In this document: positions 35,592 through 52,911 of the stretch, piece after piece
How the letters are laid out: each line of letters begins with the position of its first letter
How positions within the stretch are numbered: position 1 is the first letter of the stretch
Virus record (IMG/VR): IMGVR_UViG_2528311097_000001
Source: a virus
Reading direction: 5' to 3' (one strand)
Length of the DNA: 60,881 bases
Translations under genes and position numbers: made by a program
The notes under the pieces: model-generated
The model's input: only the letters and a program-made list of their open reading frames with translations
Databases searched by the model: none
What the model was told of the DNA's origin: nothing

Positions 35592-35882
35592 TCAAGTATC
35601 CGGACTGTCTATCTCTGGCGTCGGCGGATCGGTATCGAACGGGATCGGGGCCTTTAGTTTCGGGCTGAGTCCGCGCCGGTTGCCATGCTCGCCGCCTTGA
35701 TGACAGTCCGAGCACAGCCCCATCGTGTTATCCGGATCGGGGTTGCGCTTGTTTCGGTCTCGGTGGTGGACCTCGATCGCGTCGACGGCCTCTCGAGGGC
35801 GACCACAGCCCGGGCACTGATACTCGCTGCCGTTTCGGTTCTCCCAGAAGACGTCCCGGGAGGTCTTGCGTGGGTCGACCAT
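35592..35882 (-). CDS. HNH endonuclease
   Basis: CPGCG...IEVHHRDRNKRNPDPDNTMGLCSDCH; TGATG-coupled start. Confidence 0.85.
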   Translation of the reverse strand: MVDPRKTSRDVFWENRNGSEYQCPGCGRPREAVDAIEVHHRDRNKRNPDPDNTMGLCSDCHQGGEHGNRRGLSPKLKAPIPFDTDPPTPEIDSPDT

Positions 35883-36070
35883 CAACCCATGAGCAGCTCG
35901 TAGGTGCACTCACCGCAGAGCGTGATGGTCGTGCTCTCACTGTAGCCCATCTCGGCGAGTCGGCCACCGATCTCGGTCGTTCGGAAGAACTGTGGCGAGA
36001 ACTGCCCGAGGAGGCCCGGTGCGGGCGTGCATTTGTCGTCGCACTTGTTGCAGGTTGCTGTGTAGCCCAT
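35882..36070 (-). CDS. Zinc-finger microprotein
   Basis: CNKCDDKC...LCGEC. Confidence 0.6.
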   Translation of the reverse strand: MGYTATCNKCDDKCTPAPGLLGQFSPQFFRTTEIGGRLAEMGYSESTTITLCGECTYELLMG

Positions 36071-39881: not shown

Positions 39882-41090
39882 CTATGGGATCTGTTGGACG
39901 GCCTCGAACGGGTTCGCCCACTGGTTGCCCGATGAATAGATGTTGACGAACCCATGTTCGTCGCGCGTATAGCGCGATGGGACACCACTCTGTTCGATTC
40001 CTGCACCAATTCCGGGGTGCGAACACCGGTTGTCCTCGAAGTAAAAGCCGTCGAGTGGGACGCCGCGAATCCGAGCGTGGGGAGTTCCACCGCCCTGATT
40101 GTGGTTGATGAAGGGGAGATCTGGAACTCGCTTGGCGAGGATATCACTCCCGCGGACGAGCATCGTCCCCCCTGCTCGTTGCTCCCAGTTCGAATCGGAC
40201 GGGTCCGACGACCCACTCTCGTTTTCCCCAACACGGTGCATATCAAGTGGATGCGAGCTGGTCCACGGCCCGATCGTCGACTCAAGAACGTAGTAGTTCG
40301 CGTCGGCATGGCCCGACCCACACATTGCGTGACGAGCGGCATCAAGGTATGATTTATAAACAGTCACATCGCCGTGACGAATGTCGACACAGTAGCCGTA
40401 TGATGTCATCATTGTGTTGTGGACGTGACTGTACGCGACAATTGCGTTCGAAACCGCCCCCTCACCCCCGACAGCAATCCCTTGTACTGAGAAGGCCCAC
40501 ACTTCGGAGTTGTCCACACGGCAGTTGTCGCCCTGGATGTGAATACCGCGGGCGAACCGTGCCTCGCGCCATCGCTCGCGCTCAGCTTCGCTCCCTGGAG
40601 CGAACGGGAAGTACCCTGGTATCGCCTGATGCTCTGTAACACTCGTATGCGGTCCACGGATCTCGACGCCCGTGATGCGTGCATTATCCTCCATCCGGAT
40701 GAGGCCAGTTCCATTCGAGCCGCCAGCCCATGCAGGCGACGAGGTGCCTTCATCTTCTGTGAGGATCGTCGCTCCACCAGTAGACGATGACCGACCCGAG
40801 GCGATCGTAACGTCCGTGACGGTAAGGGTCGTACCGGAAAAGTCGTAGAGGTTCTCCGACGGGAGCCAAACGACCCGCCCGTCGTTTTGCGAGGCGTGGT
40901 GCTTGAGTTGCTCGACAGTATCGGCCTGCACGTCCGCGTCCCCGGGCTGGATGTCTTGAAGGGCGGGGACGCCACCACTCGGCAGCCGACCCGCACCAGG
41001 ACCGTTATACTCAACAGTACAACCCGCCACGCCCACCACCGCCGCTCCGGCAAGCCCGGTGAGGAATTGGCGCCGGGTGGTCGGGTTCAT
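39882..41090 (-). CDS. Tat-exported lipoprotein with right-handed beta-helix
   Basis: TRRQFL...VAGC lipobox; DNCRVDNSEV...QGI, YGYCV beta-helix rungs. Confidence 0.75.
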   Translation of the reverse strand: MNPTTRRQFLTGLAGAAVVGVAGCTVEYNGPGAGRLPSGGVPALQDIQPGDADVQADTVEQLKHHASQNDGRVVWLPSENLYDFSGTTLTVTDVTIASGRSSSTGGATILTEDEGTSSPAWAGGSNGTGLIRMEDNARITGVEIRGPHTSVTEHQAIPGYFPFAPGSEAERERWREARFARGIHIQGDNCRVDNSEVWAFSVQGIAVGGEGAVSNAIVAYSHVHNTMMTSYGYCVDIRHGDVTVYKSYLDAARHAMCGSGHADANYYVLESTIGPWTSSHPLDMHRVGENESGSSDPSDSNWEQRAGGTMLVRGSDILAKRVPDLPFINHNQGGGTPHARIRGVPLDGFYFEDNRCSHPGIGAGIEQSGVPSRYTRDEHGFVNIYSSGNQWANPFEAVQQIP

Positions 41091-41177: not shown

Positions 41178-44024
41178 TTACTCGAGCCGGGATTCTAGAT
41201 CGGCGAACTTATCCCCGATAGACCCACCCGAGCCGGAGGCTGTTGTCTCATCGTCCGGTGCATCCTCAGCAGCACTATCCGCGGTGTCGTCTCCATCCTC
41301 AACCAGGGACGTAGGCGTGTACCGCAGAGGTTCCTCACTCGCCGACAGGAGATCCTCAGTATCCGCCAGATCGCCAAGGTCGTCGAAGGGGACGGCCTCG
41401 CCGTGATGGATGAGCGAAAGGTCCGCTGCCCGTGTCGTCCCTTCAGGAACGATTACGACGGCCCAGTGTTCCCGTGAGAGAGATGGCTCGGGCACGAGTT
41501 CGGTCGGTGCCCCAACCGCGACGTACTCCTCGCGTTCGGGATCGCCTTCTTCAAAGTCGGATTCGCGAGCGGGATACTTCCCAATGGCACCCGATGAGTC
41601 GATGTCTTCGCGTGTTTTGAACGACGCTATCGACGTCCCGTCAGTGTCCTCGAGCACCCAGTGATATCCGTCGTCCGGGTCGGGATCGTACCACCACACC
41701 GCGTTTCCGCCCTTGACGCGGAGCATGGGCTCGCCGTCGACTGTGACTGTTCCGAGATTGTACGAGCGCCGACGCCCGTTCTCGTCGACCTCGCGGCAGT
41801 ACATCGGATCGGTGAGCGTATCGTAGACCTTCCATGCTTTCTCGGGACGGGCGGCGTAGAGACATCGTTCGCCGTCCTCGATGGCGTCGTGGAGGTGGCG
41901 AAGGGTCTGTCCGGGGCTGGACTCGCCGGTCGAGTCTTCGAGCTCCACGCGGACGTTCTTGCCTCCTGAGAGGGCAGCGAGTTCGGGGTTCTCCTCCATG
42001 AACCGTTCGCGGGCCTGGCGTGAATCTTCCGGGGTGACGATGTCCCACGAAACGGCATCCTTGAAGGCCCGCTCGATCGACGCGAACCCGTCGCTGGATC
42101 GGCCGATGGTCTGTTGCTCGATCTCGGTGTCGAAGCCTGCGTCAGTGAGGGCGTCGTAGAGTTCCTTGATCGCTTTGCGGTGGTCGCCCTTGCCGTCAAC
42201 GGGCGAACCGCTGATCTTCTTGAAGAGAGTGATGCCACGGGACGTCGTCTTGAGTTTGACCTCACCGTCGCGCTTCTCTCGCTCAACGAGGTCGTCGCCG
42301 ACCATGTCGAGGACACCCCACACCTGGGACTCGTGGCCGAGGTCTTCGCGATCGACGCCCAGATTATCGATGAGGCGGTGTTGGATTAGATCGGCAGAGA
42401 CAAAGCCGTCATCATCACCGTGCTCGATCGCGACGTCATGGACTGTCTTACAGGTCTGGCGTTCGACACGGTCAAGGTCGATGTCAGCGACGGCCATCGA
42501 CTTTCGGTTCCCGCTATCGTCGAGGATCGCACCGGCCCCGTCGAGCTGCCCGTCGCCGCGATTGAGGAGTAGCTCGTCCATGAGTTGCTGGTCGGACTTT
42601 GGCTCATGTCCGTCTCGGCGGACGATCCGCTCGATATGGTGGTCGGCTTCGGTTTGAGTGATCGTTGGCGGGAATGGCGGGAGTGCGTAGACACGGTATG
42701 GGTCCGGCGGCCCGACCGAAGTCTTCATCCAGACATGATATTCCTCTTCGTCGCGGAGTGTTTCCCACTTGAGTCCAAGATTTTTCCCGACGACCTTGCA
42801 GGCGTCGGCTGAGCCGACGGAGAAGGACATCTTCGTATCGCACTGGCTGAAGAGTGCTCCGACGATCTCAGGCGGGAGTTGATCGGGATACTGGCAACAG
42901 AGGAATAAACAGAGCCGCGAGGTCCGCGCCTTCGAGAGCATCGTCGGGAGTGAGGACCCCTCATGAGCCAGCAGATCAGCTTCGTCCATAAGGAGATGGA
43001 AGTTATCCGGGCCGCTCCCTCGCGAGCTCTTATCACCATCCCGGTCGCGTGCGGCGGCCCACGTCCGGCGGAGGATGGCCGTCCCAACCATCTCTTTGAT
43101 ACCCTCGTCCTCTTTGTTCATCCGCACGATGAGGATCTTGCCCTCGTCAATCACCTCTTGAAGGTTGATCGTATTGCCCCGGTGGGCGAACACGCGCCTC
43201 GCGATGGGGTTCTCAACCCAGTTTTTGAAGCGCCTGCGGATCGCGTCCAGGTCGTCATCATCGTACTCGGCGAGCTTATCGGCGAACAGCGCGAGGAAGA
43301 TGTGGCCCGATGCGTTGACCATGTCCCTGTAGCGCTCGCGGTTCTCCTGATCCGCGAGGATGAAGTACAGGTCGATCATCGTGAACTCGGCGTCGTGGCG
43401 AGCGGCGAATCGGATGATGTTCTCCGCGATCGCGTCCATCAGCGGCCCCCAGTAATTACTCGCGCCGAGCATCTGCACCAGGTCGTTAAGGATATTCTCG
43501 ACGATTAGTTCAAATTCGGGGTGGTCCGGGGAAACGCCAGGGTCGAGGAAGTTGAACCCGGTCTGGGCAGACCGAGTGCCGGCGGGCTCAAGCCATACGA
43601 CGTCGCCTTTCCGGTGGTCGGGGAGGATGGAGTAGAACCGTTTTGCACCGTCGCCTTTGGGTTCGATATAAATCATGCCGTCGCCGGACTCGGCGATCGT
43701 CCGGCCGGCATTCATCATGAGGTTCGACTTCCCATAGCCCGTGCTCCCGAAGAGGACAGTGTGCTGGCGAAGGTCCGTCTGGTCGATTGAGGCGTGGCCA
43801 CCGCGACGCGTTCCGACGCCGACTGCGATGGGGCTCTCGGCGTCAGCTCGCGGCGACCGCATCATCTGACGGGCGAGATACCCGGCAAAGACCTGCTCGT
43901 TGCTGTGTTCGTCGGTTCCATGTGACCGGAGCGTCTCATTCCCTTCGACGGCCTCGGTCGACTCCTCTTCCCAGATGTAGAGGCCGTCATCAGGGCTCAA
44001 GGGTTGTGTTGGGGCAGCCGCCAC
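41178..44024 (-). CDS. virD4: VirD4/TraD-like coupling ATPase with C-terminal wHTH and nuclease-like domains
   Basis: HTVLFGSTGYGKS Walker A (43725-43748), IYIEPKGD, FNFLD, LLMDEAD Walker B, SKARTSRL..QYPDQL. Confidence 0.85.
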   Translation of the reverse strand: MAAAPTQPLSPDDGLYIWEEESTEAVEGNETLRSHGTDEHSNEQVFAGYLARQMMRSPRADAESPIAVGVGTRRGGHASIDQTDLRQHTVLFGSTGYGKSNLMMNAGRTIAESGDGMIYIEPKGDGAKRFYSILPDHRKGDVVWLEPAGTRSAQTGFNFLDPGVSPDHPEFELIVENILNDLVQMLGASNYWGPLMDAIAENIIRFAARHDAEFTMIDLYFILADQENRERYRDMVNASGHIFLALFADKLAEYDDDDLDAIRRRFKNWVENPIARRVFAHRGNTINLQEVIDEGKILIVRMNKEDEGIKEMVGTAILRRTWAAARDRDGDKSSRGSGPDNFHLLMDEADLLAHEGSSLPTMLSKARTSRLCLFLCCQYPDQLPPEIVGALFSQCDTKMSFSVGSADACKVVGKNLGLKWETLRDEEEYHVWMKTSVGPPDPYRVYALPPFPPTITQTEADHHIERIVRRDGHEPKSDQQLMDELLLNRGDGQLDGAGAILDDSGNRKSMAVADIDLDRVERQTCKTVHDVAIEHGDDDGFVSADLIQHRLIDNLGVDREDLGHESQVWGVLDMVGDDLVEREKRDGEVKLKTTSRGITLFKKISGSPVDGKGDHRKAIKELYDALTDAGFDTEIEQQTIGRSSDGFASIERAFKDAVSWDIVTPEDSRQARERFMEENPELAALSGGKNVRVELEDSTGESSPGQTLRHLHDAIEDGERCLYAARPEKAWKVYDTLTDPMYCREVDENGRRRSYNLGTVTVDGEPMLRVKGGNAVWWYDPDPDDGYHWVLEDTDGTSIASFKTREDIDSSGAIGKYPARESDFEEGDPEREEYVAVGAPTELVPEPSLSREHWAVVIVPEGTTRAADLSLIHHGEAVPFDDLGDLADTEDLLSASEEPLRYTPTSLVEDGDDTADSAAEDAPDDETTASGSGGSIGDKFADLESRLE

Positions 44025-45121
44025 TAGTCCGCCACCTCTGGTTCAGAATCGCCGAGGTCGAGATTGGAATGGAACGTGTGGCTTTCCCGCGGGACGCCAG
44101 GGCCCGACTCGCGAGTCGCCCACTTCACGTCGGGGACCTCAATTGACCCGTTCGGAAGGTGGAAGAGCCCTTCCCATTCTTGGATCGTGAATGCGTTCGA
44201 CGTTCCGTGGAGGAAGCGGCCGACGGGCGAGCGTTTCCGAACGCGCCGCCGGACGAGATCTTCAGCCTCGTTTATATTGCCAGTGTGCTTGAAGTATGTC
44301 GGTCGAAGTTTCTGCTTGTTGGCGTAGTCGTATTTTGAGAAGGACTTAGCGGCCTTTTCAAGAGCGGTTTGGACATCCGATTTATCAGGGCCGATCGCCA
44401 TGAGACGGATACTGGTTCGAAACGTCTCATCGGAGACCTGCTTTTGCATATCTTTCGCGAGGTCTTCGTTGAGGTCAGACTTCACGACCTTTGTCGTCTC
44501 TTGGCGCAAGCCGATTGAAAGCGTGCCCTGTCGGGTCGAATCGGCGATTCGATCACCGTCGCCGCCGATCCGTCCGCGCTTGTACCACTTGCTCGAGATG
44601 GGTTTGCCACAGCCCTGAACAATCAGTCGGACATCATTCTCGTTGACGAACTTCGGGAGTGTCGACGAATACGGGTCGCCATCCAATGGATCACCGGTCG
44701 AGTCGCGGAAAGATATCGGGTGGATGGCGTCGAGTTGTGGTTCGACGCGGCAGGTAAACACCCACTCGCCGACCTTGGCATCGGGGAGTGGGTCTTGGTA
44801 CGTCTCCATCCGGCTGTTGGCGTACTTAGAGTTGATCAACGACTGGATGTCGCTAAGGTCCTCGTCGGCAGCAGTGATCTGGGCAGTCAATTGATCTCGG
44901 AACCACCATTCGAAACTGAAGGTCCCGCCTTTTCGACCAGTGCCGACAGTGTTATAGATATCTTCAAGGAAGTCTGCGCCGCCGCTCATACCAGCAGTAT
45001 CGACATAGGGCCGCACCTCTAAGCGGTTCGGATGTTCGATTTCGTGATAGAGCCGATCGATGCGATCCTCGAGAAGTTTCGTCGGTTTACCACCCCAAGA
45101 GACCCAGGAAAGGATGCTCAT
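44024..45121 (-). CDS. Conjugation-module protein coupled to VirD4-like gene
   Basis: 365 aa; TAG/GTG 1-nt overlap with virD4; FSFEWW, HPI, FRTSIRLMA. Confidence 0.55.
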   Translation of the reverse strand: MSILSWVSWGGKPTKLLEDRIDRLYHEIEHPNRLEVRPYVDTAGMSGGADFLEDIYNTVGTGRKGGTFSFEWWFRDQLTAQITAADEDLSDIQSLINSKYANSRMETYQDPLPDAKVGEWVFTCRVEPQLDAIHPISFRDSTGDPLDGDPYSSTLPKFVNENDVRLIVQGCGKPISSKWYKRGRIGGDGDRIADSTRQGTLSIGLRQETTKVVKSDLNEDLAKDMQKQVSDETFRTSIRLMAIGPDKSDVQTALEKAAKSFSKYDYANKQKLRPTYFKHTGNINEAEDLVRRRVRKRSPVGRFLHGTSNAFTIQEWEGLFHLPNGSIEVPDVKWATRESGPGVPRESHTFHSNLDLGDSEPEVAD

Positions 45122-46140
45122 TCGTCGCCACCCCTGCTGTGCTGGAGTAGTTCCCAGTTAGGCCCGAGGTCGTACCACTTGCGTGCGAAGAGGTAGGCCG
45201 GGATGGAGATGATTGGTAGAAGTGCACCCACTGTAACGCCCACTACGAGCGATGCGATACCTGTAGCGACGCTCATTCGAAGGACGAACAGTTCGCGGTC
45301 GTAGCGGGGGACCCAGTCGACTCGGGAGCAGCACCGATCAGCACGAACGGCAGTCTCGAGGTTTGTAAACCCAATAATGCCGCTTGCGATGTACATCGAG
45401 AGCCCCAGCGCAAACTGCCCGCTGGTCGATGCGAGTGGCACCGTCAGAGCCCCACCAACGAGCCCTGCGCTGGCGATCGCGAGAACGGACCACGGGCCAT
45501 CCGAGAAATTAAATTCCTGAACAGTCGTCCCACGATGATCATTTTTCTCGCGTTCGTGGAGGTGAAGCCAGTAGCTCCCCACGAGTAAGATCGTGCCTGC
45601 GAGGACAATAGCGGAGATATTAGCAGTGTCGAGGTAGTTCAGGGTCGGAACAAGTCCAGATGTGAATGCAGTCATGATCGTGGTGAGGGCAGTAGCAGCG
45701 AAGAGGAGGACGATACCAGCGGCAGCTCGTCGAGCGAATAGTGTCTTAACAGGTCCACGGCTGACCCAGTGAATCACCTCATCAAGACGGGTGTTGATCT
45801 GTTGGTCACGGCGATTCTGTCGAACGCGCATCTCCCACTCTTCGGTCCCGTGACAGTCGAGGCAGACGAGGGCATGGCTCTCGTCAGAGAAATCAACCTC
45901 ATCGAGGTCGACGATGATCCAATCGCCGAGAGAAGTACCGTCGACAACCGTCCCGCAGCACTCGCAAGTCGAGCTGGCATTCCCGATCGTTCGGAGGATG
46001 ACGCTTAGGTCATAGTCGTGTGGCGGCGTCGCTGTGGGGCTATCCCCGTCCGTCTCACCAGCACCATCCGAACTATTTTGAGTTGTCACGTTGGAATTTG
46101 TTCCAGTAGACATATTATTAAGCATTATCACCACCTCCAT
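45118..46140 (-). CDS. Polytopic membrane protein with N-terminal Cys4 site
   Basis: CECCG...VCLDCH followed by about six hydrophobic helices. Confidence 0.6.
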   Translation of the reverse strand: MEVVIMLNNMSTGTNSNVTTQNSSDGAGETDGDSPTATPPHDYDLSVILRTIGNASSTCECCGTVVDGTSLGDWIIVDLDEVDFSDESHALVCLDCHGTEEWEMRVRQNRRDQQINTRLDEVIHWVSRGPVKTLFARRAAAGIVLLFAATALTTIMTAFTSGLVPTLNYLDTANISAIVLAGTILLVGSYWLHLHEREKNDHRGTTVQEFNFSDGPWSVLAIASAGLVGGALTVPLASTSGQFALGLSMYIASGIIGFTNLETAVRADRCCSRVDWVPRYDRELFVLRMSVATGIASLVVGVTVGALLPIISIPAYLFARKWYDLGPNWELLQHSRGGDE

Positions 46141-48070
46141 TGTCAGACGGATCCTTGCCGAGTTTGAGCAGTTCCTCCGCTAACGGTTTGATCTTTACCG
46201 GGTACGTCCCGTGGTCGTCGATATCAGCTAAACAGTGTGAATATCCCCGCTTTGGCGTCCCTTTGTTCATCTTCCGGGCGAAGGCGCACTCGTTCTCAGT
46301 GAGGCCCAGCTTCTCGCCATACTCGTCGAAGTGGATGCCCGGTTCTTTGTGAATAAACTTGTGTGACGTAAGGTTCGCAAGCGTCTCGGCCTTCGGATGG
46401 ATAAAGAAGTCCTGAGCCTGCTGGGTGATCATATGCAACGAGATGTCGAAGTGTCGGGAGTGGCGGACAATCTTTTCGAGCCACTCGAGACTGTTTGGCG
46501 TCTCAAACAGCCGGTGGATCTCGTCGATGGCAATGACCATGCGTTTGTCCGACGCCTTAGCGCGCTGGTAGATCACGTTGAATGGAGCCTGGAGTCGGAG
46601 GGCCTTCTCCCGATCTGAACCGCCCTGTTGCACGTCGATTAGCGTGGACTTGCCTGAGAGGTCAATGTTCGAGCGGCGCCCCAGATTGGCAAAGTTTCCA
46701 CCCTCGAACGAGTCCATCGCCATGTGAAGGTCCGCAGCAGCGTCTTCCCATTTCTCGGAATCGCGAACGTTCGATGCGCGATCGTCACTCGAGAAGTTGT
46801 ACTCGCCATCTGGCGTTCGGGCGAAGAATCCCTCGGCATCGTCGGCGATCATGCCAAGCGTCTCGCGGAGATCGAGCGGTGCTGGACTCGGATTTGAGTG
46901 GGTCTTCGGATCTTCGTTGATCTCCATCCGGTAGGCGGTCTTGCGGATCCCTTTCTGCAGAACCGTCCACTCGTCTCGTGTGAGACCGCCGTCAGAGCCG
47001 CCGGCCTGCGAGAAGAACGTCTCAAACCACCCCAGCGTCGTCGATGCCCAATGGTTGAACGGGTTGAGTCCCTCTTCCTCAACAACGTGAATGGGCGTTG
47101 GCTGGATCTCCATCGGGTTGACAGCGTTCTCACCACCGAGAGGGAGGCGCTTTGCTCCAGTTTCATGGGCGAGTTTGTCGAGGCCGTTGACCGGGTCAAT
47201 CATCACGAGGATGGTGTCGGGATCCATCGCAAGCCGTCGAAGCAACATCATCATCGTCCCAAAAGACTTGCCTGACCCGAGGTCGCCGATAGTGAGTGCG
47301 TTGTAGCCCCCCTCACGATTCCAGCGGTCGAAGGCGAACGGCTCGTCAGTAACCGCGTGGTACCCGATCAAGACACCATCGGGCTCGTAAAGCGTACTCG
47401 CAGAAAACGGGAACATCGCACCAACGGCATCCCCAAGCATCTTTCCCGACGCACCACCGAGCATGTCCTTCGCGATCGGGGACGTGCTTGTTAGTGCGTC
47501 GTCGCTCTGGTAGTCGATCGTTCGGATCGATATATCGTTCTTGTTGAGCTCGTCAGTGATCGAGCGTGCCTCGTTAGTGACGACATCTCTCGACTTGCCT
47601 CGAATGCGAATGTAAACGCCGACATCCCAGAGTTTCTGTGACCCCGTCTTGAGTTCATCGCGGATGAACTGGTGCTCTGCGATCTGCTGTTTTGTGAGGC
47701 CGATATCCGGATCCTCTTGTTTCTGCTGCTGGCGGAGTTTGACTTTGAGCTTCTGAATCGACCGGTCGATCTTCTGGACCATCTGCTGACTGTCAGCCGG
47801 ATTGAAGTGAATGACGGGTTCGACAGCCGTGTTGGGGTGCGTATTGATCAGGTCAATGATTCCCGGTTCGATCTTCGAGGGCATCGACGTGATACAGAGG
47901 TGCTTGATCCAGTCTTCGCCAGACCGGCACCCGCCTAGTTCGTAGGCGACCGACGACGGGCCGACAGCACGCGCTTGGTGTTCTCGGGCCTCATCGACGG
48001 ACCCAGTGTCCGCACTCGTGTCGAACTTGTCCGATACTTTTTCCTTCAGGTGTGCGATTTTTCCACTCAT
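46118..48070 (-). CDS. virB4: VirB4-like T4SS ATPase
   Basis: FPFS...GVLIG...PFAFDRW, NALTIGDLGSGKS (47264-47287), IDP, AVNPME, VIAIDEIH, RHSRHF...TQQ. Confidence 0.9.
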   Translation of the reverse strand: MSGKIAHLKEKVSDKFDTSADTGSVDEAREHQARAVGPSSVAYELGGCRSGEDWIKHLCITSMPSKIEPGIIDLINTHPNTAVEPVIHFNPADSQQMVQKIDRSIQKLKVKLRQQQKQEDPDIGLTKQQIAEHQFIRDELKTGSQKLWDVGVYIRIRGKSRDVVTNEARSITDELNKNDISIRTIDYQSDDALTSTSPIAKDMLGGASGKMLGDAVGAMFPFSASTLYEPDGVLIGYHAVTDEPFAFDRWNREGGYNALTIGDLGSGKSFGTMMMLLRRLAMDPDTILVMIDPVNGLDKLAHETGAKRLPLGGENAVNPMEIQPTPIHVVEEEGLNPFNHWASTTLGWFETFFSQAGGSDGGLTRDEWTVLQKGIRKTAYRMEINEDPKTHSNPSPAPLDLRETLGMIADDAEGFFARTPDGEYNFSSDDRASNVRDSEKWEDAAADLHMAMDSFEGGNFANLGRRSNIDLSGKSTLIDVQQGGSDREKALRLQAPFNVIYQRAKASDKRMVIAIDEIHRLFETPNSLEWLEKIVRHSRHFDISLHMITQQAQDFFIHPKAETLANLTSHKFIHKEPGIHFDEYGEKLGLTENECAFARKMNKGTPKRGYSHCLADIDDHGTYPVKIKPLAEELLKLGKDPSDNGGGDNA

Positions 48071-51491: not shown

Positions 51492-52010
51492 TTAGAGAAT
51501 GCCGAGCCCACCAGTAACGCACTCGGCAAATGTGAAGCCGAACACGTCGCCGAAGACCATCTGGATTAAGGTCGGGGCGAGGAGTGCAACGCCGAGTCCC
51601 ATGAACCCACGCTTGGCCCAGTTGATGTCGCCCTCGAGCTTACCCGGTGTTTTGTGTATCGCGTAGGACATGCCGGCAACGATCAAGACGCCAAGGCAGA
51701 CGACGAAGCCGATACGTTGGAGCATCGGAAGGCCATTGGCTGCTGCCTGCTGTGTGATCGTGGAACAACCTTCGCCACCAACATCCTGTGACTGAGCCAA
51801 GACAGTCCCGACGGAGAACATGTACGCAGTGATCCCGATTAAGGCGTAGATCGCCATGTCGGCCGCCATGGAGCGTGTCTCGTGAAGGGCATACTTCAGC
51901 CGACTCGATTCTTCGCGATCAAGTGGGTTCGTTCGTGAGCGTGCGATTCGGCCCGCCAGGCCGGACATCGCAGGTTCGTCGTCATCGGTACAGGACGTAT
52001 CTGAGTCCAT
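51492..52010 (-). CDS. VirB2/TrbC-like pilin
   Basis: Hydrophobic leader ending VLA-QSQ, then two TM helices around a basic loop; first gene of the operon. Confidence 0.6.
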   Translation of the reverse strand: MDSDTSCTDDDEPAMSGLAGRIARSRTNPLDREESSRLKYALHETRSMAADMAIYALIGITAYMFSVGTVLAQSQDVGGEGCSTITQQAAANGLPMLQRIGFVVCLGVLIVAGMSYAIHKTPGKLEGDINWAKRGFMGLGVALLAPTLIQMVFGDVFGFTFAECVTGGLGIL

Positions 52011-52523: not shown

Positions 52524-52911
52524 GGCCGCACCGCACTCCGCTTCCCTGCTCTTCTCACAGCTTCTGGATCGCCCTGTGTCGACACTCGTTGAGGTGTTGA
52601 TTAACTCTGCTCGAGGAGATGTTGATGGTCTTTATTTGATGAAATGTTGAGATTCTATATGACCCGCTGATCTGTTCTGTTGTGATGTGTTCTGAGTGAT
52701 GAAGTGTTCACCAGGATCTGCATGATGAGATGATAGTGTCCTGGAGCCCCTGGGGTATCGGGTGAGCTTTATCGTGTTCTGTGTCCAGTACCGCTTTCGC
52801 ACTGCGCGTCACCCCTGCGGGGTTCCTTACTTCGTCGGAGTTTGAGGCTGTACAGCTATTCTTTTGATGGCTGTAGGGAAGATTAAAGAGAAGAGGAACG
52901 TATCATGACAC

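Follow-up and report, generated by a model that had tools for sequence, protein, structure and literature searches.

A haloarchaeal coupling-protein-like ATPase with a fused winged helix and a predicted Hjc-like nuclease fold: a candidate DNA-processing module within the pump

The window, meaning the whole stretch of DNA analysed here (60,881 nucleotides; IMG/VR virus record IMGVR_UViG_2528311097_000001), contains an operon that begins with a T4SS-pilin-like gene and includes a VirB4-like ATPase and a coupling-protein-like ATPase of 948 residues. The element carrying the latter is a haloarchaeal mobile element. The genes concerned are:

41178..44024, minus strand: coupling-protein-like ATPase gene (stop-free open reading frame), 948 residues, with a candidate C-terminal DNA-processing module
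44024..45121, minus strand: 365-residue protein, between VirB4 and the coupling protein
46118..48070, minus strand: VirB4-like ATPase of the coupling-protein operon
51492..52010, minus strand: T4SS-pilin-like protein at the operon head (PF18895)

Genomic neighborhood analysis shows a recurrent arrangement. A VirB4 match adjoins the coupling-protein gene in 11/12 related loci examined, and the 365-residue protein, which has no Pfam family, occupies the same position in 7/12. Against PF18895 the pilin-like protein scores 23.9 bits, short of the 26.6-bit cut-off. Genes of this type are set in plasmids and integrated elements, with ParA and replication genes nearby. Seven relaxase family profiles, HUH included, have no match in the window, in agreement with an earlier note on this DNA, which had seen no HUH or other recognisable relaxase there. 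PF08751, PF01076, PF02486 and PF07514 match nowhere in the genome, and PF03432 matches only on contigs C3 and C5, with no match on the contig that holds the window. Only short TGATG-type repeats (52637-52784) and weak inverted repeats occur at 52.0-52.9 kb, and no oriT is claimed there; the 52.5-52.9 kb region, which the earlier note had proposed as a nicking target, thus offers just short repeats.

The 948-residue protein is divided as follows:

42615..43862, minus strand: VirD4/TraD/TrwB-like P-loop ATPase domain (residues ~55-470)
43725-43748, minus strand: Walker A, GSTGYGKS (residues 93-100)
42975-42995, minus strand: Walker B, LLMDEAD (residues 344-350)
42213..42479, minus strand: winged helix-turn-helix domain (residues 516-604; model and VIA-align)
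41802..42200, minus strand: predicted restriction-endonuclease-fold (Hjc-like) domain (residues 609-741; models and fold searches)
41967..42074, minus strand: helical insertion of ~36 residues (~651-686) between strands 2 and 3
41370..41792, minus strand: beta-rich third domain (residues 745-885) with invariant Y755 and W777
41181..41369, minus strand: C-terminal tail (residues 886-948), acidic and poorly conserved

The domain order runs from the ATPase through the winged helix and the Hjc-like nuclease fold to the beta-rich domain, the last being conserved in just part of the family. The N-terminal part matches TrwB_AAD_bind (23.3 bits against a Pfam cut-off of 20.5) and DotL in the PDB (E 4e-4), and the ATPase matches TraG-D_C at 17.8 bits, below the cut-off of 22. 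No transmembrane segment is found in the protein, the top 19-residue hydropathy mean being 0.95. Judged by its sequence, the protein is a soluble VirD4/TraD-like P-loop ATPase of the FtsK/HerA type. In the database copy the start lies 8 codons later, giving 940 residues.

The earlier note had singled out positions 41870-42460, which correspond to residues 522-719, and read them as a winged helix followed by a PD-(D/E)xK-like domain. The strings that it quoted are all present, both for the winged helix (VHDVAI, 528-533; VWGVLD, 568-573; LVERE, 579-583; LKTTSRG, 590-597) and for the nuclease-like segment (HRKAIKELYDALTDAGFDTEIEQQ, 615-638; SSDGFA, 643-648; VRVELEDST, 691-699; TLRHL, 707-711). 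An AlphaFold2 model of residues 505-885, built on a 45-sequence alignment, has a mean pLDDT of 90.4 and a pTM of 0.88. In VIA-align comparisons, the winged helix superposes on RosR (6ez1; Z 8.5, 76 residues, 2.4 Å), TubR (Z 8.5) and MarR (Z 8.2). In the DSSP assignments of two models, the secondary structure of residues 609-741 runs alpha-beta-beta-beta-alpha-beta, as in the restriction-endonuclease fold, and the VIA top-50 lists obtained with a domain-only model consist almost entirely of PD-(D/E)xK nucleases. The best match is the Holliday-junction resolvase Hjc 1gef (Z 8.1, 85 residues, 3.0 Å), and the further matches include AF1548 (Z 7.8), Hjc 2wj0 (Z 7.3), NucS (Z 7.0), VRR_NUC (Z 6.8), BsaWI (Z 6.5) and PaqCI (Z 6.0), a Z of 7-8 lying in the range that the tool calls 'middling'. 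Foldseek searches of the PDB return E-values that are not significant with either model, a BFVD fold search gives nothing significant, and comparison of the nuclease-domain sequence with Pfam and with PDB sequences yields nothing meaningful. The proposed layout is thus borne out in the models; as to the fold check that the earlier note had suggested, the nuclease fold emerges from AlphaFold2 and VIA and does not reach significance in Foldseek. Taken together, residues 609-741 are predicted to adopt a restriction-endonuclease-like fold. Other coupling-protein groups have compact versions of the domain, which lack the 36-residue helical insertion.

Within this fold, three short segments form the candidate active site:

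42177..42182, minus strand: H615-R616 (helix 1), where the Hjc pattern has Glu-Arg
42090..42092, minus strand: D645, immediately ahead of strand 2 ('PD' position)
41928..41945, minus strand: E694-L-E696-D-S698-T699, in and after strand 3, with ExE replacing (D/E)xK

Sequence analysis of the aligned homologues reveals a signature H..Q..D..ExE(S/T)T, in rows aligned at 25-35% identity. H615 is kept in 95/97 homologues, D645 in 99/99, E694 in 111/111 and T699 in 109/111, and the Q in 87/99 rows. The aspartate of SDG and both glutamates of ELE, which the earlier note had picked out as catalytic candidates, correspond to D645, E694 and E696 and are indeed invariant or nearly so. Conservation of the winged helix/nuclease module extends to 92 cluster representatives, far beyond chance, and every architectural group retains the signature, a point in favour of a working active site and against a relic. 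The canonical lysine, two residues past the strand-3 acid, is absent, its position being taken by glutamate (E696) in 109/111 homologues. An ExE variant of (D/E)xK is known from BamHI, so the replacement does not exclude activity; a site that is inactive or altered would fit it too.

This substitution bears directly on an alternative that we regard as unlikely, though as the strongest of the competitors, in which the module only loads the pump. The winged helix and a dead nuclease fold would recognise a sequence or a structure in the DNA and position the hexameric motor on it, much as FtsK does with its winged-helix gamma domain or Streptomyces TraB with the domain that recognises clt, and any cutting needed would fall to another enzyme. 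Besides the lost lysine, this would account for the lack of a sequence link to any active nuclease family and for two proteins (P0024 and P0030) that join the winged helix-nuclease-beta module to a distinct HNH nuclease, where the module could be for targeting only and the HNH domain for cleavage. However, the H, D, E, E and T positions are near-absolutely conserved in ~110 sequences of all architectures, which is unusual for a degenerate site. Furthermore, coupling proteins of 650-750 residues keep the nuclease domain and have no winged helix, which makes the nuclease fold the constant element rather than the part that reads DNA.

The distribution of the domain adds a second line of evidence. 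The nuclease profile matches 180/401 Halobacteria genomes and is also matched in 104/109 of the genomes that hold the coupling ATPase; on these profile matches, the fusion is typical of haloarchaeal VirB4 clusters, with a nuclease domain near-universal in their coupling ATPases. A rarer cluster type in the same genomes, confined to 4 genera, instead encodes a separate MobA/VirD2-like relaxase (PF03432) and a short coupling protein. The short coupling protein comes after the relaxase in 14/14 of these loci, 9/14 have a VirB4 match, and none of the 14 has a nuclease-profile match (E <= 0.01). Conversely, no relaxase is found beside the fused forms, and none of the 29 PF03432 places across the 401 genomes has, among the matches listed, a coupling-protein-nuclease gene within 80 kb. 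The fused nuclease and the HUH relaxase modules are therefore mutually exclusive, a complementarity that may reflect two separately inherited lineages. That the nuclease domain is near-universal and missing exactly where a separate relaxase gene sits favours a role in DNA processing. In PLSDB, each of the 27 plasmids that carry a homologue is typed 'non-mobilizable', that is, as having no known relaxase.

The same gene context weighs against the idea that the nuclease acts on DNA other than the outgoing copy of the element, whether by processing incoming DNA in import of the Ced/Ted type or by degrading DNA that competes or re-enters, in exclusion or defence. Nuclease-ATPase fusions are common in defence systems, and to that extent the idea has precedent. 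Archaeal VirB4/VirD4-like systems can also import DNA (PMC9905601); the VirD4-like CedD of Sulfolobales acts in this direction (PMC11823120), so transfer might run in either direction, a point against the reading preferred below. However, the genes reside on plasmids and integrated elements near ParA and replication genes, not in conserved chromosomal repair loci, and the mutual exclusion with relaxase modules that occupy the same place in the operon better fits export processing. We consider this explanation improbable.

Slightly less probable still is a structure-specific resolvase, which would cut four-way junctions or branched intermediates and so supply a monomeric, unbranched genome to the pump or, for this element, to viral packaging. 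Its appeal is that the best structural matches are Holliday-junction resolvases, and that the sole segment aligned by hhalign between the nuclease profile and haloarchaeal Hjc, the 11-residue catalytic strand, pairs IEAExST with IEAKSS. However, the host has its own Hjc, and a structure-specific enzyme needs no sequence-reading winged helix in front of it. Membership of the Hjc family (PF01870) is rejected, there being no Pfam match and an hhalign probability of 1.3% against haloarchaeal Hjc.

The earlier note had also likened the protein to the Replic_Relax type, a comparison that holds for the two-domain layout and fails for sequence membership. At E <= 1, PF13814 matches neither the protein nor 27 homologues of the domain, and a six-frame search of the window region gives no match to it either. 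Membership of Replic_Relax/MOBC is rejected, the hhalign comparison with the MOBC relaxase of pTEF1 reaching a probability of 1.9%, which is not significant. Consequently, a true, very divergent MOBC relaxase fused to its coupling protein is highly improbable: it would share the logic of a winged helix plus PD-(D/E)xK fold, and the pTEF1 relaxase, which matches Replic_Relax and a winged-helix model, is encoded two genes from its coupling protein, but PF13814 finds nothing in the window and the segment aligned by hhalign is not the catalytic one. The reading in the earlier note is partly supported: its layout, its candidate residues and the lack of a recognisable relaxase in the window hold, and nicking or cutting by the protein is a proposal.

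The best reading, to which we give about an even chance, is that the pump contains a DNA-processing module of its own, hydrolytic and relaxase-like. The 948-residue protein would be the substrate-feeding coupling ATPase of an archaeal VirB4-type DNA-transfer apparatus. Its winged helix would bind the DNA of the element, and the Hjc-like domain would assemble a metal site from H615, D645, E694 and E696, at which a phosphodiester bond would be hydrolysed to give a nick or a cut. The free DNA end would be threaded into the adjoining hexameric motor, which would pump it towards a VirB4/VirB6-like channel. In this way, hydrolysis would do the job of a relaxase, with no covalent bond between protein and DNA, in a manner comparable to viral terminases, which hold pump and nuclease in one chain. 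The analysis itself establishes the order of the domains, their predicted folds, the conserved signature, the gene context and the exclusivity with HUH relaxase modules; catalysis, a nick as opposed to a double-strand cut, the target site and the coupling to export are the steps that we infer. A wider proposal is more tentative, and we think it somewhat more likely to be wrong than right: most haloarchaeal conjugation-like systems would have no relaxase, a new kind of Hjc-like H-D-ExE nuclease within the coupling ATPase would open the DNA and feed the ATPase's own motor, and the rare clusters that pair a minimal MobA-type relaxase with a short coupling protein would represent the other solution, bacterial in style, on that VirB4 chassis.

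That archaea conjugate is established by experiment, pNOB8 and pT33-3 being two examples. According to reviews as late as the end of 2025, no relaxase is known for archaeal conjugative elements (PMC9905601, PMC12857230). Full-text searches did not find the fusion described, and an earlier mention is possible. The 948-residue protein thus represents a testable candidate for the missing archaeal conjugation relaxase, with four residues to mutate, and between roughly a quarter and nearly half of the sampled Halobacteria genomes contain the candidate enzyme. The clusters that carry a MobA-type relaxase on the same VirB4 chassis provide a natural control. If the reading is true, typing tools miss a relaxase-independent route of plasmid mobility, as in the 27 plasmids above, and a pump-nuclease fusion analogous to the viral terminase would answer the archaeal 'missing relaxase'.

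Among the closest known systems are the MOBC relaxases (such as TraX of pAD1 and its pTEF1 homologue), in which a winged helix likewise precedes a restriction-endonuclease-fold nuclease. These enzymes are presumed to be hydrolytic rather than to use HUH or tyrosine chemistry, and they act with a coupling protein, whereas in the 948-residue protein module and ATPase share one chain; the proximity of the two genes on Enterococcus pTEF1 suggests a natural precursor of such a fusion. Unlike the MOBC relaxases, the 948-residue protein has ExE rather than ExK, an extra beta-rich domain and no detectable sequence relation. With Hjc it shares the order of motifs (a G..(E/H)R helix, G-F, PD and IEA(K/E)S), but the helix-1 glutamate is replaced by histidine and the lysine by glutamate, its subgroup carries the 36-residue helical insertion, and the domain is embedded in an ATPase. 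Similarity of the P-loop ATPase and adjacency to a VirB4 gene are common to TrwB, VirD4, TraD and DotL; in contrast to these bacterial coupling proteins, the haloarchaeal protein has no N-terminal membrane anchor, and a 480-residue C-terminal extension, the candidate DNA-processing part, stands in place of a relaxase-docking tail.

More distant parallels join a DNA translocase physically to a nuclease. The large terminase is an ATPase fused to an RNase H-fold nuclease, a translocase joined to an end-making nuclease as in HerA-NurA. HerA-NurA has been discussed for archaeal transfer (PMC9905601). Both differ from the present protein in nuclease fold and ATPase branch, and their tasks are packaging or end resection rather than the transfer of DNA between cells.

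Finally, Streptomyces TraB is an FtsK-like pump whose C-terminal winged helix reads a plasmid site and which achieves relaxase-free transfer. Unlike the system of the 948-residue protein, it lacks a nuclease domain, and it transports double-stranded DNA with no VirB4 apparatus involved.

The 948-aa VirD4-like protein encoded at 41178-44024 (minus strand) is classed here as a coupling protein that incorporates a nuclease-fold domain from a new family within the PD-(D/E)xK superfamily. No description of such a coupling ATPase-nuclease fusion was found in the searchable literature, beyond whose reach part of the relevant papers lies. Approximately residues 55-470 form a P-loop ATPase of the coupling-protein type, with intact Walker A and Walker B motifs, a TrwB_AAD_bind match of 23.3 bits (cut-off 20.5), weaker matches to TraG-D_C and TraD, and DotL as the sole PDB sequence match of this half. 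The strings and coordinates quoted in the earlier note are exact in the translated ORF, 41870-42460 corresponding to residues 522-719.

Residues 500-870, used as the query of an exhaustive HMMER search, matched 92 cluster representatives, and these matches are almost always C-terminal in proteins of 900-1300 aa; 44 of the 92 supplied the alignment for an AlphaFold2 model of residues 505-885 (pLDDT 90.4, pTM 0.88), which comprises three domains. Residues 516-604 form a winged helix (Z 8.5 to RosR, 76 aa at 2.4 Å; further matches to TubR, MarR and ORC/Cdc6) and residues 745-885 a beta-rich domain. Between them, residues 609-741 run in the order helix, three strands, helix, strand, helix, with D645 directly ahead of strand 2 and E694/E696 within strand 3. 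Modelled alone from the 27-sequence alignment A4 (pLDDT 81.8), this nuclease domain retrieved almost exclusively restriction-endonuclease folds from 48,161 PDB representatives, the single Z values lying in the tool's 'middling' range: Hjc (1gef, 7.7, and up to 8.1 over 85 aa at 3.0 Å on re-comparison with Foldseek's top 1000 chains) and AF1548 (7.6) scored best, alongside VRR_NUC, tRNA-splicing endonuclease, BsaWI, Can2, TnsA, PaqCI, XisH, NucS, Vsr, FAN1 and NgoMIV. None of the Foldseek E-values for this model was significant; the fold is assigned from three features: how uniform the hit list is, the order of the secondary-structure elements and where the conserved acidic residues fall. The winged-helix plus PD-(D/E)xK layout that the earlier note had read from the sequence is supported by the confident 505-885 model, the RosR-type winged-helix matches and the restriction-endonuclease folds retrieved with the domain modelled alone, and the nuclease fold and active-site signature are very probably real.

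The residues proposed there as catalytic (the D of SDG and the E's of ELE) are D645, E694 and E696, which together with Y755 and W777 are the C-terminal region's only fully conserved columns in a 45-sequence alignment. When the available homologues were aligned to the domain HMM (121 rows), conservation among the aligned rows was 95/97 for H615, 87/99 for Q638, 99/99 for D645, 111/111 for E694, 109/111 for E696, 103/111 for S/T698 and 109/111 for T699, and the signature is kept in every architectural group. An ExE active site has a precedent in BamHI. Retention of the signature among sequences at 25-35% identity favours a functional metal site, and we lean towards a catalytically active domain. 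Falling short of proof of catalysis, it leaves some room for a non-catalytic loader, a reading against which the same argument for a metal site counts and which is unlikely.

Among 401 Halobacteria genomes, 44 were matched by the C-terminal module as a single-sequence query, 109 by the ATPase domain and 180 by the nuclease-domain profile A4, which also matched 104 of the 109 ATPase-matching genomes. The nuclease domain lies C-terminal to the ATPase in all 12 related loci fetched, 11 of which contain a VirB4 match and 7 a homologue of the window's 365-aa protein. The other sampled genomes of the phylum gave a single match, to a protein of 802 aa or more from a different class that likewise has TraG-D_C (L069:892-3300, minus strand, genome G540). 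Several architectures were found:

650-750-aa coupling proteins: compact nuclease domain straight after the ATPase, without a winged helix
900-1400-aa forms: resembling the 948-aa protein
1350-1565-aa HerA/DUF87-type ATPases: adjoining VirB4-like genes, with a Pox_D5-like end
2000-3400-aa giants: with a DnaG-type primase domain in addition

The third type, exemplified by a 1407-aa protein with a compact nuclease domain and a Pox_D5-like C-terminus encoded immediately behind a VirB4-like gene (L047:3317-7540, plus strand, G059 contig C1), explains many genomes in which the nuclease profile has a match but the window's ATPase does not. A representative giant is a single 3293-aa ORF (L051:3364-13245, minus strand, G132 contig C6) with a coupling ATPase at 697-1036, the nuclease domain at 1257-1369 and a DnaG-type primase core at 2315-2425; frames of 2000-3400 aa like it were seen in no fewer than seven further genomes. 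What stays constant is the pump with its nuclease fold; the winged helix and third domain are additions. The wHTH-nuclease-beta module, H-D-ExE nuclease included, also occurs in stand-alone metagenome proteins of 460-490 aa, where it is fused to an N-terminal HNH nuclease:

L033:668-2143: P0024, adjoining a homologue (45% identity) of the beta-helix lipoprotein that the window encodes at 39882-41090
L034:308-1696: P0030

Processing of incoming or competing DNA, as a rival role for the fused nuclease, is quite improbable.

The window has a G+C content of 57-68% and an acidic proteome, its nearest relatives being Halalkalicoccus, and sits within a 2.8-Mb contig. Alongside a tailed-virus module (terminase, portal, MuF, capsid, tape measure) it carries a minus-strand operon that encodes the 948-aa protein, a VirB4-like ATPase and a T4SS-pilin-like protein. 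Two further features lie in the window:

35595-35909, minus strand: 105-aa HNH endonuclease near the terminase gene (PF01844, 26.6 bits), 30% identical to the HNH end of P0030
52637-52784: cluster of short direct repeats in the more A+T-rich spacer that precedes the transfer operon (TGATGAAATGTT type x3, TGATCTGTTCTG type x2, GTGTTCTG x2)

An HNH gene near the terminase gene is the arrangement of many cos-type tailed viruses. The repeats could be the binding array of one winged-helix protein. Besides the regular host hjc gene (G000 C1, 398868-399143), the genome contains a second, partial Hjc-family match 13.5 kb left of the window (G000 C1, 987895-988053, minus strand; 36 bits, model positions 40-92, in a 134-aa frame), possibly part of the same integrated element.

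The same genome provides a natural control. The window lacks a recognisable relaxase, as the earlier note had observed: relaxase matches in the genome are confined to PF03432 (MobA/VirD2-like), above cut-off on contigs C3 and C5, and the other relaxase families searched gave none. The matching proteins (174 aa, 37.6 bits) have N-terminal tyrosines and a His-rich motif, and lie in compact mobilisation modules of bacterial style:

L073:4015-6484 (C3, 29-31.5 kb): NikA-like gene, 174-aa PF03432 relaxase, short coupling protein
L086 (C5): copy identical to L073
L074 (C3, 169-171 kb): diverged copy

Upstream of the module, L073 and L086 each have a VirB4 match; within L074 there is none. The NikA-like gene precedes the relaxase in the genus' five loci, and the coupling protein that follows (370-440 aa) scores strongly on bacterial profiles (TrwB_AAD_bind, 126 bits). 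PF03432 relaxases occur in 18 of the 401 Halobacteria genomes, in four genera; a short coupling protein follows in 14/14 loci examined, VirB4 is matched upstream in 9 of them, and a NikA-like match adjoins the relaxase in 8. Across these 14 loci the nuclease profile matched no ORF at E <= 0.01, and PF03432 was found within 80 kb of the listed coupling-protein-nuclease genes at 0 of 29 places. The VirB4 chassis so carries one of two alternatives, a nuclease-fused coupling protein or a plain one accompanied by a separate HUH-type relaxase, the pattern predicted if relaxase and fused nuclease are functionally equivalent. The two cluster types may be separately inherited lineages, in which case the counts are non-independent. 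The NikA-like/PF03432 modules are hard to square with statements that archaea lack homologues of relaxases.

All 27 haloarchaeal plasmids with a homologue in PLSDB (13 in Haladaptatus) are labelled non-mobilizable by MOB-suite despite carrying VirB4/VirD4-like genes, and, according to the literature, no relaxase has so far been identified in archaeal conjugative elements (PMC9905601, PMC12857230). A relaxase-like role for the fused module is, in our estimate, an even call. In such a role, the winged helix would dock the soluble ATPase on the element's DNA, and the H-D-ExE site would hydrolyse a single strand, or both strands should domains pair in the hexamer. The DNA end would then enter the motor pore and be pumped to the VirB4/VirB6-like channel and pilus, transfer proceeding without a covalent pilot protein.

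Bacterial VirD4 has a transmembrane segment, whereas none was found in the 948-aa haloarchaeal protein. The nuclease domain has neither a Pfam nor a PDB-sequence match and, judged by sequence, belongs to no described family. Its pattern G..HR..L..G(F/L)..(P)TQ.G..PD(G/A) ... IEAExST recalls G..ER..L..GF..R..SG..PD ... IEAKSS of Hjc, with the helix-1 Glu replaced by His and the strand-3 Lys by Glu. Against Hjc, hhalign gave 1.3%, aligning the catalytic strand alone. Junction resolution, which this likeness and the fold matches bring to mind, has a slim chance. The Replic_Relax-type layout that the earlier note cites finds no counterpart in sequence (no PF13814 match in the window; hhalign 1.9% to the MOBC relaxase of the Enterococcus plasmid pTEF1), and true MOBC membership, for all the shared fold layout, is very remote. 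For a relaxase-like role, pTEF1 is informative in its gene order: its wHTH/PD-(D/E)xK-type MOBC relaxase gene lies two genes away from the coupling-protein gene, so that in bacteria the PD-(D/E)xK fold is already used as a relaxase beside a coupling protein.
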